From an uncultured Defluviitaleaceae bacterium (GTDB taxonomy: Bacteria > Bacillota > Clostridia > Lachnospirales > WRBF01), in the NCBI GenBank assembly GCA_964392115.1, contig CAYMOU010000084.1, positions 1-11,474 on the forward strand: a DNA stretch of 11,474 nt, written 5' to 3'. The position numbers and the translations under genes were made by a program. The notes below the pieces were generated by a model. That model was not told where the DNA came from and made no database searches. It saw only the letters and a program-made list of their open reading frames with translations. Positions 341 to 11,474 of this stretch are shown here, one piece after another. Every line of letters begins with the position of its first letter. Position 1 is the first letter of the stretch.

Positions 341-1231
341 ATGTTAGATTACAGGTTTGAAACATTTTTGGTCTTGAGCAAGTTGGGTAGCTATACCAAA
401 ACCGCTCAGTACCTACATATAACACAACCGGCTGTATCGCAACATATAAAATATTTGGAAGAATACTACGGCTGTAAATTATTCTATTATGAAGGCAAGA
501 CCCTAATGCTTACCCCACGGGGTAAAATGCTAAACGATTTTGCCGTTACAATGAATTCGGACAGCATAAGAATAAAAGAATTGATGAACAAGGAGGAGTT
601 CAAGAGCCTTCCGTTGGAATTCGGTGTAAATTTAAGCATAGGCGAATACGTAATGCCAAAGGTAATAAAAAAATTAATAAAAATATATCCAAACCTAAGT
701 ATTACAATGATAGTTAACAACACACAAAACCTGTTGGAAAAATTAAGGGACGGAGAGCTGAGCTTTGTTATACTGGAAGGATATTTCGATAAATCAAGGT
801 ATGATTTTGAAGTATTGTCCGTTGAAAGTTTTATACCGGTTTGCTCTTCGGATTATCCCCTTGCAGATAAAAAAATAAATTTTAAGGAGATTTTAAACCA
901 TAGACTGTTTGTACGAGAAAAGGGTTCGGGCGTAAGAAATGTTTTTGACGAAATACTGTACGAAAACAATTACACTCCGGAAAATTTCGAGAATATAACC
1001 GTTATAGGTAATACCAATGCAATAAAACAACTGGTATCCGAAGGTTTGGGCATAAGTTTTTTATATAAAACATCTGTTGTAAACGAAATTGAAAGAGGAG
1101 ATTTACGCCAATTACAAATAGAAAACTATCAAATGAAGCATTATTTCAGCTTTGTTTATTTAAAGAACAGCCTCAATAAAATAGAATATTTGAATTGGTT
1201 AAGGTTTTTTAAAGAAACTGTAAATTCCTGA
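341..1231 (+). CDS. LysR-family transcriptional regulator (N-terminal wHTH, C-terminal substrate-binding domain).
   Basis: 296-aa ORF. The N-terminus (FETFLVLSKLGSYTKTAQYLHITQPAVSQHIKYLEEYYGCKLF) is the canonical LysR HTH signature. RBS GGGAGAG sits 7 nt upstream of the ATG. Confidence 0.85.
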   Translation: MLDYRFETFLVLSKLGSYTKTAQYLHITQPAVSQHIKYLEEYYGCKLFYYEGKTLMLTPRGKMLNDFAVTMNSDSIRIKELMNKEEFKSLPLEFGVNLSIGEYVMPKVIKKLIKIYPNLSITMIVNNTQNLLEKLRDGELSFVILEGYFDKSRYDFEVLSVESFIPVCSSDYPLADKKINFKEILNHRLFVREKGSGVRNVFDEILYENNYTPENFENITVIGNTNAIKQLVSEGLGISFLYKTSVVNEIERGDLRQLQIENYQMKHYFSFVYLKNSLNKIEYLNWLRFFKETVNS

Positions 1232-1259: not shown

Positions 1260-1287
1260 TTGTAAAAAACAATCCGTATGTTATAAT
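1260..1287 (+). promoter_or_regulatory. Candidate sigma-A promoter for floT: -35 TTGTAA (1260-1265), 16-nt spacer, extended -10 TGtTATAAT (1279-1287). Predicted TSS ~1294, so the 1298-1395 repeat element would be transcribed into the floT 5' leader.
   Basis: Read directly from the sequence; a perfect extended -10 just downstream of the lysR stop. Confidence 0.45.
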
Positions 1288-1297
1288 AGAGACATAA

Positions 1298-1395
1298 TAC
1301 TAATTCCATTTAAGACAATAGGTAAAAATTTGCAACTCAGACAAAGATTCAAGGATAATTTGCAAATTTTTAACCTTCGTTATATGGAATTAGTA
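1298..1395 (-). repeat. Copy A of a ~100-110 bp palindromic element bounded by 12-bp terminal inverted repeats TACTAATTCCAT / ATGGAATTAGTA, core AAGGATAA-N11-TTATCCTT around a TTTGCAAA palindrome. This copy is reverse-complemented relative to copies B and C.
   Basis: The reverse complement of 1298-1395 aligns base-for-base over most of its length with 6430-6540 and 11420-11474. Confidence 0.65.
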
Positions 1396-1445
1396 TAAAT
1401 CATGTTTTTCGATACTCTAAAAATTCTAATACAGGGGGTCATAAA

Positions 1446-5144: not shown

Positions 5145-5252
5145 TAATATGAAACATTGCTTCAATTTAACGGGTCTGCAAGCCTAAAACAACAAATCAC
5201 ACATATGTACTTTGATAGCATAAGATAAACACCTATAAGTATGGAGGAAAAA

Positions 5253-6176
5253 ATGAACGAGCAAAAAAAATTAACCCCTGAACAAATTAAAAACGTTAAA
5301 GGTATGGGATTTTTACATAACAGAGGAACCGGCTCTTTTTCGGGCAGGGTAATTACGGAAAACGGCGTTTTAACGGCTAAGGATATGGCGGTTTTGTCTC
5401 AAGCGGCGGAAAAATTCGGTAATGGCAAGGTTACCTTTACCGTCAGAATGACCTGTGAATTACCGGGCATAGAGTACGATAACATAGAACCCTTCCGTGA
5501 ATTTTTGGCGAAAGAAGGCCTGCAAGTCGGCGGAACAGGCCCTAAAGTGCGCCCCATCGTAGCCTGCAAGGGAACCACCTGTGTTTACGGGCTTTACGAT
5601 ACTCAAGCTATGGCAAAGGAAATACACAAGCGTTTCTTTGAGGGATATTCCAAAGTTATGTTGCCTCATAAATTTAAAATTACTTCCGGCGGCTGCCCGA
5701 ATAATTGTGCAAAACCGGACTTAAACGACGTGGGCTTGGTTGGTCAACGCATACCCAAGTTTAAAGCCGAAGATTGTAAAGGCTGCAAGAAATGCGTGGT
5801 CAGTGAGGGTTGCCCTATGAAAGCGGCTACCCTTGATGACGGAAAATTATCCATAGACGAAAACATCTGCAACAGTTGCGGTAAATGCACCAGAACCTGT
5901 ACTTTCAAAATTTTTGAAGATAACGAAACTTTATATAAAGTCTACGCCGGCGGTAAATGGGGTAAACAAATCCGAGTTGGTACTCCCATAAGCAAATTGT
6001 TCACCAAAGAAGAAGCCCTTGATGTAGTTGAAAAATGCATCCTCCTCTTTAAAAAAGAAGGCATTAAAGGCGAACGCTTCGGCGATACCATAGACCGCAT
6101 AGGTAAAGAAAAAGCCGATGAATTACTTATTTCAGACATTTTGTTAAACGAAAAAGAAGAAATAATTAATTCCTGA
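5253..6176 (+). CDS. Stand-alone AsrC-like protein (anaerobic sulfite reductase subunit C-like): a nitrite/sulfite reductase ferredoxin-like half-domain plus siroheme/4Fe-4S domain, with an inserted 2x[4Fe-4S] ferredoxin motif.
   Basis: Cys motifs CKGTTC...CPNNC are the SiR/NiR-type cluster, and CKGCKKCVVSEGCP...CNSCGKCTRTC is the ferredoxin dicluster. Architecture matches AsrC. The ORF track starts at 5241 (ATGGAGG...), but that ATG overlaps the RBS GGAGG for the ATG at 5253, so 5253 is preferred. Confidence 0.7.
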   Translation: MNEQKKLTPEQIKNVKGMGFLHNRGTGSFSGRVITENGVLTAKDMAVLSQAAEKFGNGKVTFTVRMTCELPGIEYDNIEPFREFLAKEGLQVGGTGPKVRPIVACKGTTCVYGLYDTQAMAKEIHKRFFEGYSKVMLPHKFKITSGGCPNNCAKPDLNDVGLVGQRIPKFKAEDCKGCKKCVVSEGCPMKAATLDDGKLSIDENICNSCGKCTRTCTFKIFEDNETLYKVYAGGKWGKQIRVGTPISKLFTKEEALDVVEKCILLFKKEGIKGERFGDTIDRIGKEKADELLISDILLNEKEEIINS

Positions 6177-6227: not shown

Positions 6228-6249
6228 AATCCACTCAAACAGAATAACG

Positions 6250-6303
6250 AAATGCACCAAATGCACCAAATGCACCAAATGCACCAAATGCACCAAATGC
6301 ATC
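6250..6303. repeat. 9-bp tandem repeat (AAATGCACC)x5 plus one degenerate copy (AAATGCATC).
   Basis: Perfect head-to-tail copies read directly. It translates as (MHQ)n or (FGA)n in spurious ORFs. Confidence 0.85.
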
Positions 6304-6391
6304 GAATACCTTTAATACAATGTAGGGTCGGGGCTCTGCTCCGACCGCTCTACGACCACGGCAACCTTTATCTTTCATCCATCCAATCCAC

Positions 6392-6427
6392 AAAAAAGAG
6401 GAGTGCCACGAAACCGCAAGCACTCCT
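6392..6427 (-). terminator. Intrinsic terminator for the - strand transcript (end of the acid-sugar operon/glxK remnant). Minus-strand RNA reads AGGAGUGC-13 nt loop-GCACUCCU followed by CUUUUUUG.
   Basis: 8-bp perfect GC-rich stem followed by a U6 tract on the - strand; it abuts repeat copy B. Confidence 0.6.
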
Positions 6428-6429
6428 TA

Positions 6430-6540
6430 TACTAATTCCTTATTTAATGAAGGTTTAATGAAGGATAAAAATTTGCAAATTATCCTTAAATCTTTGTCAA
6501 AATTGCAAGTTTTTATCTACTGTTTTAAATGGAATTAGTA
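6430..6540 (+). repeat. Copy B of the TIR-bounded palindromic element (TACTAATTCCT...ATGGAATTAGTA). It contains an internal 10-bp duplication (TTAATGAAGG x2). A further partial fragment lies at ~6561-6590 (TACTAATTGCAAAT on the - strand).
   Basis: Aligns with copy C and with the reverse complement of copy A. It sits between the glxK pseudogene stop (6598) and the - strand terminator. Confidence 0.65.
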
Positions 6541-6597
6541 TTAATAAGGGGTTTTGGAAATGAAATTGTTAATTACTGATTTGCAATTAGTATAAGT

Positions 6598-7724: not shown

Positions 7725-7783
7725 ATACGTCTCCTGTAAAGAATATTTTTCGGTTCAACCGGTAAGTTGTCTATGAACAAATC

Positions 7784-7817
7784 TTGAGGGAAACTCCTAT
7801 TGAAAAGTTTCCCTCAA
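7784..7817 (-). other. Conserved hairpin TTGAGGGAAAC-(12 nt)-GTTTCCCTCAA in the larA-glxK intergenic region, 17 nt after the larA stop. It is a possible weak terminator/attenuator or RNA-stability element.
   Basis: Perfect 11-bp inverted repeat. The identical stem with a different loop recurs at 11362-11399. Confidence 0.4.
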
Positions 7818-7833
7818 ATTTATGCGTTAATAT

Positions 7834-9144: not shown

Positions 9145-10110
9145 TTATAATTTTTCGCCGATTTCTATTGCTTTTAGTAGACTTTCTTCGTTAGCCGTAA
9201 GTTTCCCGGCTATGTCAAATGCGGTGCCGTGGTCGACAGAGGTTCTTACAACATCCAGTCCTACGGTAATGTTTACGCCGCTGTCAAAGGCAAGCAGTTT
9301 TAAGGGAATATGACCTTGGTCGTGATACATGGCAACCACTATGTGGTATTTTCCTTTTAAAGCCTGTAAAAATACCGTATCCGGCGGAATCGGCCCGTAT
9401 ACGTCCATACCGGCTTTTTTGCATTCGTTTACAGCCGGGATAATTTCGGTTATTTCTTCGTCTCCGAAGATGCCGTTTTCGCCGGCATGAGGGTTAAGCC
9501 CGGCTACAGCTATGCGTGGTTTATCATAACCGGCCTTGGTCAAGGTGTTATGAGCCAGCATGATTACTTGACATATTCTCTCCTTCTTAGCTGCATCACA
9601 GGCTTTTCGCAAGGAAACATGAGTGGAAACGTGAATTGTTTTCAGTTTGTCGCTCCAAAGTAGCATGGCGTATGAATCGCCTTTTAAATATTCTCCGAAA
9701 ATCTCCGTATGGCCGGCAAATTTGTAGCCTGACAAATGCAGGGCTTCTTTATTTAAGGGCGCCGTAACCACCGATGATATTTCTTTATCTAATGCAAAAT
9801 CTATGGCGGCTTTTACGCTTAAAAAGGCGCATTTCCCACCGGTTTCGGAGACTTTGCCTATCATGCCGGGGTCAAAGGTTATGGGGTTTGCATCAAAAAT
9901 ATTAACGCAATCCGTAAGGGTCTCGGAAGCGGCTTTTACCGGATTAAATTTTAAGCCGTAACCCAGTAATTTATTGTAATGCTCCAACACATCCAAACTC
10001 CCGAAAACTATACACCTTCCCAAATACTCGGGGTGTTTATGCAAGGCTTTTAAGGTGATTTCGGGGCCTATACCAAAGGGATCGCCCATAGTTAAGCCGA
10101 AAACTCTCAC
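9145..10110 (-). CDS. pdxA2: PdxA-family NAD-dependent 4-phospho-hydroxyacid dehydrogenase, most likely PdxA2-type 4-phospho-D-threonate/erythronate dehydrogenase (decarboxylating, DHAP-forming).
   Basis: 321 aa with PdxA motifs TMGDPFGIGPEI, HVSTHVSL, AGLNPHAGENG and MYHDQGHIP. GTG start with RBS GGAGG 7 nt upstream; the GTGA overlaps the upstream stop. Genomic pairing with a DUF1537 kinase is the hallmark of PdxA2 rather than the PLP-pathway PdxA. Confidence 0.85.
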   Translation of the reverse strand: MRVFGLTMGDPFGIGPEITLKALHKHPEYLGRCIVFGSLDVLEHYNKLLGYGLKFNPVKAASETLTDCVNIFDANPITFDPGMIGKVSETGGKCAFLSVKAAIDFALDKEISSVVTAPLNKEALHLSGYKFAGHTEIFGEYLKGDSYAMLLWSDKLKTIHVSTHVSLRKACDAAKKERICQVIMLAHNTLTKAGYDKPRIAVAGLNPHAGENGIFGDEEITEIIPAVNECKKAGMDVYGPIPPDTVFLQALKGKYHIVVAMYHDQGHIPLKLLAFDSGVNITVGLDVVRTSVDHGTAFDIAGKLTANEESLLKAIEIGEKL

Positions 10111-10760
10111 AAAACCACCTCCTTAATCTTACGCATACTGAAACTGACGGCATCCTCCTTGCCAAAGGCACCGGCCTTTGTGATAACCTTTAATCCGTCA
10201 AAGTCTCCGCCTTTAAGGCTCATCATGGGTATACCCAAGGATACCTCGGTCAAAACAGAGGAACCCACGGAATTAAGCTCGTTGAAAAAGCCTATGGCGG
10301 TGTCTCCACCGGTGAGAAAAACGCCCGAAACCTTAACTTTGGTAAGAATTTCCTTTGAGGCTTCCGCCAACTTTTTCTGAATGAAATTCCCTATTTCCTC
10401 GTTGCTCACGCCGGATTTTTTGCCGGTTTCGTTGGTAAGTTCATGCTCTTCGGCATCGTAGGAAGATGAGGAGCATAAAATCAGGTCTTTGCCTGCTTTT
10501 AATGTCTCCTTAGCTGCGGAAACATAGTCTTTTATATCCTTGCCGGTTAATATTTCATGAAAAGGCACCTTTATTACGGATATGCTGCTTTGTTCCGCAA
10601 ATTTTACTTGGCTTCTTGTAACCGAACTTACACTGCCCACCAAACCCAAGGCCGGCGGAGCTTTTCTTTCCTCGTCAAACAAAATATCTGCCATTGCCGC
10701 CGAGCCAATCCAAAGAATGCGTTTTTGGGTAGCTAAGGCGGAGACGATGATATTTTTCAT
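10107..10760 (-). CDS. C-terminal (nucleotide-binding) domain fragment of a four-carbon acid sugar kinase (DUF1537; OtnK/DtnK family). This is the downstream half of a gene split by a frameshift; its reading frame is actually open up to 10832.
   Basis: Upstream of the annotated ATG the same frame reads ...GQRNKINLSQGRIYTFDALTNADMKNIIVSALATQK, a continuous kinase-like sequence (compare the E. coli YgbK GIIVVDAVEERDLTLIAQAA region as recalled). C-terminal motifs GVFLTGGDTA and KAGAFG are present. Confidence 0.7.
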   Translation of the reverse strand: MKNIIVSALATQKRILWIGSAAMADILFDEERKAPPALGLVGSVSSVTRSQVKFAEQSSISVIKVPFHEILTGKDIKDYVSAAKETLKAGKDLILCSSSSYDAEEHELTNETGKKSGVSNEEIGNFIQKKLAEASKEILTKVKVSGVFLTGGDTAIGFFNELNSVGSSVLTEVSLGIPMMSLKGGDFDGLKVITKAGAFGKEDAVSFSMRKIKEVVL

Positions 10761-11326
10761 GTCTGCGTTGGTAAGAGCATCGAAGGTATATATTCTACCT
10801 TGAGACAGATTGATTTTGTTTCTCTGACCGAGTTAAGGTTGATGTGGGTAACAGACTCCGTAAAAACTTTGCTTAAAATAGCCTGTAAATTATCTTCCAT
10901 AACCGGGTTTTTCGGGTCTCTTGCAAGCTCGGTTTGGGTTATGGGCGTTCCGTTAAGCAGGTGAATTCCTTCAAGGGTAGTGCGGTTAAGATCGGGCAGA
11001 GCCGGGGCAAAGATTATAAGCTCGCTTTTGCAACAGTTATCCACAGCCTTGACTTCGTGGGCTATGTTGCCACGCAAGGTAGAGTCAACCTTTTTCATGA
11101 TATATTTAAAAACGGATAAATCTATATCTTTTACAAGACCGGACACTTTATTGAAGGCTTCCTCCGGAGACAGGCTTCTGCTTTCCGTATCCAGCACATA
11201 AGAATTTTCGTTATTGATAAGTTCAGTTGAAAACACCACATCGGTGGGCACTCCTCGGCGTTTTAATTGAACGCCGGTGTCGTTGGCACCGGTAAAATCA
11301 TCTGCAACTATTAAATATCTGTTCAT
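10757..11326 (-). CDS. N-terminal domain fragment of the same four-carbon acid sugar kinase (DUF1537, OtnK/DtnK family). It is truncated by a +/-1 frameshift in a T4/A4 run near 10811-10822.
   Basis: MNRYLIVADDFTGANDTGVQL is the family's N-terminal signature (IADDFTG.ND). The start ATG at 11326 has RBS GGAGG 7 nt upstream; the ORF-track ATG at 11344 contains that RBS. This frame then decays into the non-homologous SICLKVEYIPSMLLPTQT* tail. Confidence 0.7.
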   Translation of the reverse strand: MNRYLIVADDFTGANDTGVQLKRRGVPTDVVFSTELINNENSYVLDTESRSLSPEEAFNKVSGLVKDIDLSVFKYIMKKVDSTLRGNIAHEVKAVDNCCKSELIIFAPALPDLNRTTLEGIHLLNGTPITQTELARDPKNPVMEDNLQAILSKVFTESVTHINLNSVRETKSICLKVEYIPSMLLPTQT

Positions 11327-11361
11327 TAGCCGGCCTCCAAACATTTAGAAAATAATAAACC

Positions 11362-11399
11362 TTGAGGGAAACATCTTCCGGAGAAAAAGTTTCCCTCAA
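11362..11399 (-). other. Second copy of the TTGAGGGAAAC/GTTTCCCTCAA hairpin (16-nt loop), located in the 5' leader of the kinase-pdxA2-larA operon. On the mRNA strand it is followed by GGUUUAUUAUUUUCU and then the RBS, so it is a terminator/attenuator-like leader structure.
   Basis: Perfect 11-bp stem identical to 7784-7817 with a divergent loop; a U-rich tract follows on the - strand, 20 nt before the GGAGG RBS. Confidence 0.4.
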
Positions 11400-11419
11400 A
11401 CACCCTGAATGTTAAATTG

Positions 11420-11474
11420 TACTAATTCCATATTTAATGAAGGATAAAAATTTGCAAATTATCCTTGAATCTTT
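11420..11474 (+). repeat. Copy C (truncated by the window end) of the TIR-bounded palindromic element, upstream of the - strand operon.
   Basis: TACTAATTCCATATTTAATGAAGGATAAAAATTTGCAAATTATCCTTGAATCTTT is near-identical to 6430-6500 and to the reverse complement of 1345-1395. Confidence 0.65.

Follow-up and report, generated by a model that had tools for sequence, protein, structure and literature searches.

Three short palindromic repeats near flotillin, glycerate kinase and acid-sugar kinase genes are very probably copies of a ~100-bp non-autonomous DNA transposon

The 11,474-bp stretch of DNA analysed here (hereafter the window), a complete MAG contig of 40.5% GC whose closest named relatives are Clostridia/Oscillospiraceae MAGs, carries three copies of a short palindromic sequence in its intergenic regions. 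This raises the question of whether the sequence is a mobile element that has landed beside these genes or an RNA or DNA signal that the host maintains for their expression. A first-pass annotation of the letters had left its class between MITE-like and REP/BOX-like, and had suspected selection for a function at the RNA level. Our analysis indicates that the repeats are very probably copies of a ~100-bp non-autonomous DNA transposon (MITE) that were inserted recently, presumably with the help of a DDE transposase supplied in trans.

All three reported copies are present, with unchanged coordinates (Table 1). The reverse complement of copy A aligns with copy B at 88% identity over 85 nt (E=1.5e-23) and copy A matches copy C at 93% over 55 nt (E=6e-15), while copies B and C are 98% identical over 42 nt. 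Six occurrences of the terminal string TACTAATTCCAT, with at most one mismatch, were counted in the window where 0.07 are expected, a number reached in 0 of 200 shuffles. The 12-bp terminal inverted repeats described before are there, perfect in A and with a single mismatch in the left repeat of B. The annotated internal palindrome AAGGATAA-N11-TTATCCTT is exact in B and C but has one mismatch in A. An internal duplication had likewise been seen in copy B; read directly and compared with copy C, it accounts for the surplus length of B and measures 11 bp, not 10 bp.

Each complete copy, A and B, folds into the single long hairpin that had been proposed, on either strand (folding z = −3.3 to −6.6). 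The element also lacks coding capacity, as annotated: its longest open frame has 32 codons, and element-derived peptides had zero homologues among 5.8 billion proteins. Concatenated peptides from its open frames, searched for gene calls crossing other copies, returned nothing at E ≤ 10. Copy C is truncated by the end of the contig, and an independent assembly of the same organism (Logan contig L034, SRR10912418) stops 5 nt outside the terminal repeat of this copy. That both assemblies break at copy C is the expected behaviour of an assembler at a multi-copy repeat.

Table 1. Features of the window, in order of position
Feature	Coordinates	Strand	Remarks
LysR regulator	341-1231	+	
Extended -10 promoter of floT	1260..1287	+	TTGTAA-16-TGnTATAAT; putative function
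Target-site duplication of A, left	1295..1297	.	TAA on + strand = TTA in element orientation
Copy A (probable MITE)	1298..1395	-	98 bp; opposite orientation to B and C
Terminal repeats of copy A			TACTAATTCCAT / ATGGAATTAGTA; perfect, 12 bp
Target-site duplication of A, right	1396..1398	.	TAA
Flotillin (floT)	probable start 1494	+	alignment with homologues; RBS GGGAGGGTGG
Anti-sigma factor, ECF sigma factor	between floT and reductase gene	-	
NIR_SIR-type reductase	5241-6176	+	own terminator further upstream of copy B's hairpin
Terminator-like hairpin	6399..6427	-	AGGAGTGC / GCACTCCT, then T6 on minus strand; conserved in the relative L017
Target-site duplication of B, left	6427..6429	.	TTA; overlaps terminator stem base
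Copy B (probable MITE)	6430..6540	+	111 bp; left terminal repeat TACTAATTCCTT, one mismatch
Tandem duplication in copy B, 11 bp	6443..6464 (6443-6453 and 6454-6464)	+	TTTAATGAAGG x2
Target-site duplication of B, right	6541..6543	.	TTA
Solo end-like motif	6577..6592	+	TGATTTGCAATTAGTA; 1 mismatch to right terminal repeat
Glycerate kinase (glxK)	7724-6598	-	disrupted; at least four ORF pieces (29, 43, 79, 190 aa)
LarA-like, PdxA-like	after glycerate kinase in gene order	-	
DUF1537-type four-carbon acid-sugar kinase	10107-11344	-	two ORFs: SBD_N, NBD_C
Copy C (probable MITE)	11420..11474	+	left 55 bp only, cut by contig end

Flanking target-site duplications, which the first-pass annotation had proposed looking for, are present at both complete copies: TTA-element-TTA at A, read in element orientation, and the same at B. 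The flank of copy C on its sole visible side is TTG. Protein cluster look-ups led us to Logan L034 and to a relative, GCA_964468805.1 (contig CAYXWM010000030.1, hereafter L017; 38% GC); exact-protein look-ups with LysR, the N-terminal kinase ORF, LarA and floT yielded no other contigs. L017 and a second contig, L018, are syntenic with the window from LysR to the reductase gene, with 80–86% nucleotide identity in shared genes. The site of copy A is empty in both contigs, and that of copy B, before which L018 ends, is empty in L017, where it reads CACTCCTTTATTTAGGGG. The spacer between LysR and floT measures 214 bp in the window and 117 bp in L017. Once the element and one flanking triplet are taken out, window and L017 are colinear at each of the two junctions. 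These sequences indicate that A and B were inserted after the lineage split from its nearest sequenced relative.

L017 has two decayed sister copies of its own, with the same termini and a different core. One of these (13701-13799) is missing from the syntenic region of the window; we set it aside as a clean empty site because the indel there exceeds the element. More distant floT loci (L012-L016) lack both the element and the synteny.

To look beyond this lineage, we scanned JGI metagenomes with the termini only, TACTAATTCC-N60-90-AAATGGAATTAGTA, allowing element lengths of 84–114. This gave 15 loci, 13 of them independent, and every element was 101–103 bp long. The first 11–14 nt are common at each end, while the interiors belong to five or more unrelated groups, every member being a near-perfect hairpin. 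The host contigs range from 40 to 62% GC, and the composition of the interior follows that of the host. A single 102-bp subfamily accounts for eight insertions at independent metagenome loci, a dispersal to be set beside the three copies within the 11.5 kb of the window. By its sequence, the element can be assigned to a family whose members share only termini, a size of ~100 bp and a fold-back architecture, the interiors differing between hosts.

The flanks of the 15 complete independent insertions (A and B of the window and the 13 metagenome loci) reveal the target. Identical 3-bp TNA flanks occur in 13 of them (TGA 5, TTA 4, TAA 2, TCA 2), and the flanks of the remaining two agree at two of three positions (TGA/TGT and TAA/TAG). 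TNA is present in 15/15 left flanks and 13/15 right flanks. A pyrimidine precedes the duplication in 14/15 insertions and a purine follows it in 11/15, which defines the target as Y-TNA-R. The MITE-like half of the original classification is borne out by the terminal repeats, the 3-bp duplications, the empty sites of a related genome and the wider family with its common termini. The REP/BOX-like half finds no support; terminal repeats and duplications are both present.

Searches of other collections returned no further members. A 19-nt core, AAATTTGCAAATTATCCTT, had 11 hits in unrelated taxa among GTDB representatives (one genome per species), which we regard as chance because the match is confined to the core. 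The plasmid and phage collections yielded only short chance matches in BLASTN, scans of viral contigs contained no complete element, and Rfam had no match for the related copies. In the literature searched, the terminal-repeat strings appear in no relevant paper and no matching MITE family is named; the family seems to be undescribed. Some of the metagenome copies adjoin genes for a MazF toxin, a holin, a phage integrase or a nucleotidyltransferase, that is, accessory or mobile regions. One contig with a copy of the 102-bp subfamily (L021) also carries an M-box (magnesium) riboswitch at 1663-1849 on the minus strand (145 bits), unrelated to the element. M-box riboswitches are commonest in Firmicutes, and this one may hint at the host.

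We propose that a DDE transposase, supplied in trans, would bind the 12–17 bp terminal inverted repeats (TACTAATTCCATTT...), and that the element would be excised and then inserted at Y-TNA-R, with duplication of the central 3 bp. A 3-bp TWA/TNA duplication, including the context C-TNA-G, is a hallmark of the IS5/PIF-Harbinger superfamily (PMC4482050). The Y-TNA-R target with its 3-bp duplication therefore suggests an enzyme of the IS5/PIF-Harbinger type. Ends of the IS5 family usually start with GG or GA, not TAC, which counts against an IS5-type assignment. We infer both the transposase family and mobilisation in trans, since the loci examined contain no autonomous IS with these termini. The termini did not pair at IS-like spacing anywhere in 146 kb of loci, and of the 70 matches to a 17-nt terminus in viral contigs, all of them single and attributable to chance, none combined an inverted partner with a matching duplication.

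Three of the 13 metagenome copies lie inside or beside DDE_Tnp_1 genes, each MITE with its own duplication. The copy in L023 (1055-1155) interrupts an IS4-like DDE_Tnp_1 transposase gene, that in L024 (184-284) is 111 bp from an IS5-family transposase gene (NF033581), and that in L025 (525-627) splits a third DDE_Tnp_1 transposase gene in two. Compared directly, the L023 and L024 transposases are unrelated to each other. The IS5-family enzyme of L024 was considered as a partner and set aside, as the L024 MITE is flanked on either side by a TAA duplication of its own; the enzyme's match, NF033581, we take to be the IS5 group proper, which makes 4-bp duplications. From their sequence context, we read the transposases at these three loci as probable insertion victims or neighbours, not partners.

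The element is thus short and non-coding, bounded by terminal inverted repeats, flanked by a duplication of fixed length, dispersed in several copies and missing from empty sites; the 3-bp duplication at a TWA/TNA target adds a feature of elements mobilised by IS5/PIF-Harbinger (PHIS) transposases. Every testable MITE feature is present bar an identified autonomous partner, and the repeats are an ordinary kind of selfish DNA.

What the copies may do to their neighbours depends on where they landed. Alignment with homologues places the floT start at 1494, behind its RBS, rather than at 1446. Copy A lies 10 nt downstream of the -10 hexamer of the extended -10 promoter, and L017 has such a promoter at the corresponding intergenic position too (TTGAAA...TGATATAAT). 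Copy A is therefore very probably at the 5' end of the floT leader, in agreement with the first-pass prediction that it belongs to the 5' UTR. The predicted leader starts a few nucleotides before the 98-nt hairpin of copy A, which folds as an independent domain and leaves the RBS unsequestered. In this model, an incidental effect of the hairpin on the floT mRNA is likely: at the 5' end, it could stabilise the mRNA or be a substrate of RNase III. The sequence at the probable floT start itself, ATGGAATTAATA (1494-1505), matches the right terminal repeat of the element at 11 of 12 positions, and its L017 equivalent, ATGGATATAGTA, at 10 of 12. This likeness is probably a coincidence, if a curious one at ~100 bp from an insertion.

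Copy B does lie between the glycerate kinase stop (6598) and the terminator-like hairpin at 6399-6427, as annotated. Because glycerate kinase is broken into several frames, however, this is the 3' region of a decaying gene and not the mRNA leader in which all copies had been said to sit. A Logan assembly likewise contains the 190-aa glycerate kinase fragment. L017 is without the whole glxK-larA-pdxA-kinase block and keeps ~45 bp of the glxK 3' end (L017 15165-15210); this remnant, together with the broken glxK of the window, indicates that the block has been deleted in L017 and is decaying in the window. Downstream of the reductase gene's terminator, at 6238-6309, the window has about seven copies of a 9-bp tandem repeat, ACCAAATGC, which is missing from the equivalent region of L017.

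Copy C had been placed beside a leader hairpin of the acid-sugar operon. It is indeed upstream of a hairpin that precedes this operon, but the hairpin is terminator-like and no promoter is visible. A stem, TTTGAGGGAAAC...GTTTCCCTCAAG, is common to two terminator- or attenuator-like hairpins with T-rich tails on the minus strand, at 7783-7818 and 11357-11400. One is located between larA and glxK, the other ahead of the first acid-sugar operon gene, and they may be copies of a regulatory hairpin or of a further small repeat family. The SBD_N and NBD_C ORFs of the acid-sugar kinase overlap by ATGA at 10757-10760 with an identical split in Logan L034, and this could be a real split gene or a frameshift.

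A further piece, at about 6561-6592 and ending in TTTGCAATTAGTA, had been taken for a degenerate fragment of the element. It is kept at the same place in L017 (15130-15165) and must therefore be older than copies A and B; it is not a decaying copy of either. The solo motif within it, TTTGCAATTAGTATAAG (6577-6592 in the window, 15150-15165 in L017), is present in both genomes. It resembles the end of a second element in L017 (14917-15060), which is ~145 bp long, bounded by inverted repeats with related termini (TATACTTAATTGC...GAAATTAAGTATA) and located just upstream of the terminator common to both genomes. This suggests several related MITE families in this lineage.

One alternative to a selfish insertion is that the element is kept in one orientation within transcripts because its RNA hairpin is under selection for a role in cis, for instance in stabilising or processing the mRNA or in binding a protein. 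We consider this very unlikely. Given the directions of the genes, the same element strand would indeed be transcribed in 3/3 window copies, as had been noted, but such an agreement has p = 0.25, and the 102-bp subfamily shows no orientation bias, with five antisense and three sense copies relative to the neighbouring genes, of which each locus has at least one confirmed by Pfam. Copy A, very probably in the floT 5' leader and folding independently, would suit an RNA function. The positions of the other two would not: copy B follows a frameshifted gene, and a terminator-like hairpin stands between copy C and its operon. The nearest relative, without A and B, has the same floT promoter, terminator and genes, so these genes function in its absence. 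The strand presumed to be in the mRNA folds worse than its complement in A as well as in B (−27.9 and −19.4 against −30.2 and −27.7 kcal/mol). The forward strand of the 102-bp subfamily always folds better, yet 5/8 copies put the reverse strand in mRNA.

Two further arguments for an RNA role come from structure and precedent. Correia and ERIC elements alter mRNA fate via RNase III and RNase E (PMC10969869), and related subfamilies of the present element carry hairpin-preserving substitutions. However, interiors are unrelated between subfamilies, and the compensatory changes do not follow the transcribed strand. The sole Rfam hit of the element, to Drosophila roX2, is a chance match (26.7 bits against a gathering score of 55, E=0.46). 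The first-pass annotation had itself named what would reduce the element to simple selfish DNA: duplications, random orientation relative to genes and no structural covariation. Duplications are found and the wider family has no orientation bias, but compensatory changes do exist. We infer that any effects on neighbouring genes are by-products of the landing sites. A role at the DNA level, with an outward promoter (TTGCAA-18-GATAAT) or the palindromic operator AAGGATAA-N11-TTATCCTT co-opted for adjacent genes, is more improbable still. Our promoter scan did find TTGCAA-N18-GATAAT in copy A, aimed at floT, and the same motif in copy B; copy C retains a GATAAT aimed at the acid-sugar operon, the rest of its motif lying beyond the contig. 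Sigma-70-like promoters are also documented in Correia and other prokaryotic MITEs (PMC10969869). Against this, the match is weak (9/12, with an 18-nt spacer), and promoter-like hits in the window are not in excess (33, against 27.5 ± 4.6 in shuffles). The motif of copy B aims into the terminator and away from genes, floT already has a conserved strong promoter just upstream, and the motifs are confined to the window subfamily and missing from other family members. Hardly credible, finally, is another class of short repeat (REP/BIME with RAYT, an IS200/IS605-derived palindrome or an integron attC site) or an assembly artefact. The strong palindrome, conserved ends and variable interior superficially resemble attC sites and REPs, but those classes make no target-site duplication, whereas 13/15 copies here have exact 3-bp duplications, variable in the middle base, at their flanks. 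The element has true terminal inverted repeats, its copies lie outside cassette arrays, and it recurs in independent NCBI, Logan and JGI assemblies.

The reading as a MITE leaves a question about the hairpin itself. Between the copies of L023 and L024, which are 78% identical, there are seven double compensatory changes, transversions included. Within the 102-bp subfamily (L019-L033), compensation between G-C and A-T is complete at three pairs, transitions on a single side of a stem pair (five or six) invariably produce G.T on the forward strand, A.C being absent, and a single change disrupts the stem. The skew between G.T and A.C has roughly p = 0.03 in a small sample and with phylogeny ignored. 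The hairpin-preserving substitutions run against a purely neutral model of selfish DNA, barring a filter for transposition competence or an origin by fold-back. Either of these, the filter or the independent fold-back birth of elements from diverged IS ends, could explain the symmetry without a host function. Selection on structure is kept open by the constant length of 101–103 bp, the fold-back retained despite turnover of the interior, the compensatory changes and the one-strand G.T skew. We regard it as unlikely that the hairpin is under strand-specific structural selection across the family and not a passive by-product of inverted ends. If true, such selection would point to a mobility intermediate in the form of a single-stranded DNA hairpin, or to an RNA from one element strand, and would make this a MITE-like class with structure-dependent propagation.

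Comparison with known small elements places the probable MITE among several precedents. RUP of Streptococcus pneumoniae is ~107 bp long and non-coding, has terminal inverted repeats, resides in a Gram-positive genome and is thought to be mobilised in trans. The present element resembles it in size, lack of coding capacity, terminal repeats, Gram-positive genome and presumed mobilisation in trans, but RUP and IS630-derived MITEs duplicate TA only, whereas here 3 bp with a free middle base are duplicated. Correia elements (CREE/NEMIS), known from Neisseria only, end in 26-bp inverted repeats and duplicate TA; ERIC copies mostly occupy fixed orthologous sites and show little sign of recent mobility. 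Unlike Correia, the element described here has 12–17 bp repeats, a 3-bp TNA duplication and no sequence similarity to them, its hosts are Clostridia-like and other anaerobes, and its RNA is only a possible substrate of RNase III. Unlike ERIC, to which it is unrelated in sequence, it shows presence/absence differences between close relatives. The TA duplication expected of Correia and IS630-derived MITEs was not observed, nor does the element conform to REP/BIME and IS200/IS605-derived elements, which are expected to have neither terminal repeats nor duplications.

The likeness to Correia elements lies in a size of ~100–150 bp, absence of coding capacity, terminal inverted repeats, a mostly intergenic location and frequent co-transcription (PMC10969869). 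Correia RNA forms long hairpins that are RNase III substrates in Neisseria, and promoter-like boxes are possible (PMC10969869). ERIC and IRU elements are similar in being imperfect palindromes (ERIC ~127 bp) that are transcribed from intergenic regions with a possible effect on mRNA stability (PMC10969869). Tourist-type or PHIS MITEs resemble it in target, with a 3-bp TWA/TNA duplication in a C-TNA-G-like context, small size and a fold-back structure (PMC4482050); they differ in that Tourist elements are eukaryotic and have other terminal repeats. A partner of the IS5 or Harbinger type with TACTAATTCC termini was not found at the loci examined. By analogy, then, the element may be grouped with Correia, RUP and ERIC-type MITEs in architecture and likely effects, and with Tourist and IS5-type elements in its target signature.

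Overall, the result is solid and ordinary, and holds no surprise for a specialist. Its use lies in annotation: repeats of this kind break assemblies and make insertion differences between close relatives, and recognising these MITEs prevents their being misread as riboswitches, operators or small RNAs. The family termini are common to hosts of very different base composition, and the target signature points to an IS5/Harbinger-type transposase. Copy A at floT offers a natural experiment on MITE insertion and mRNA fate in Clostridia, comparable to that of Correia elements in Neisseria.
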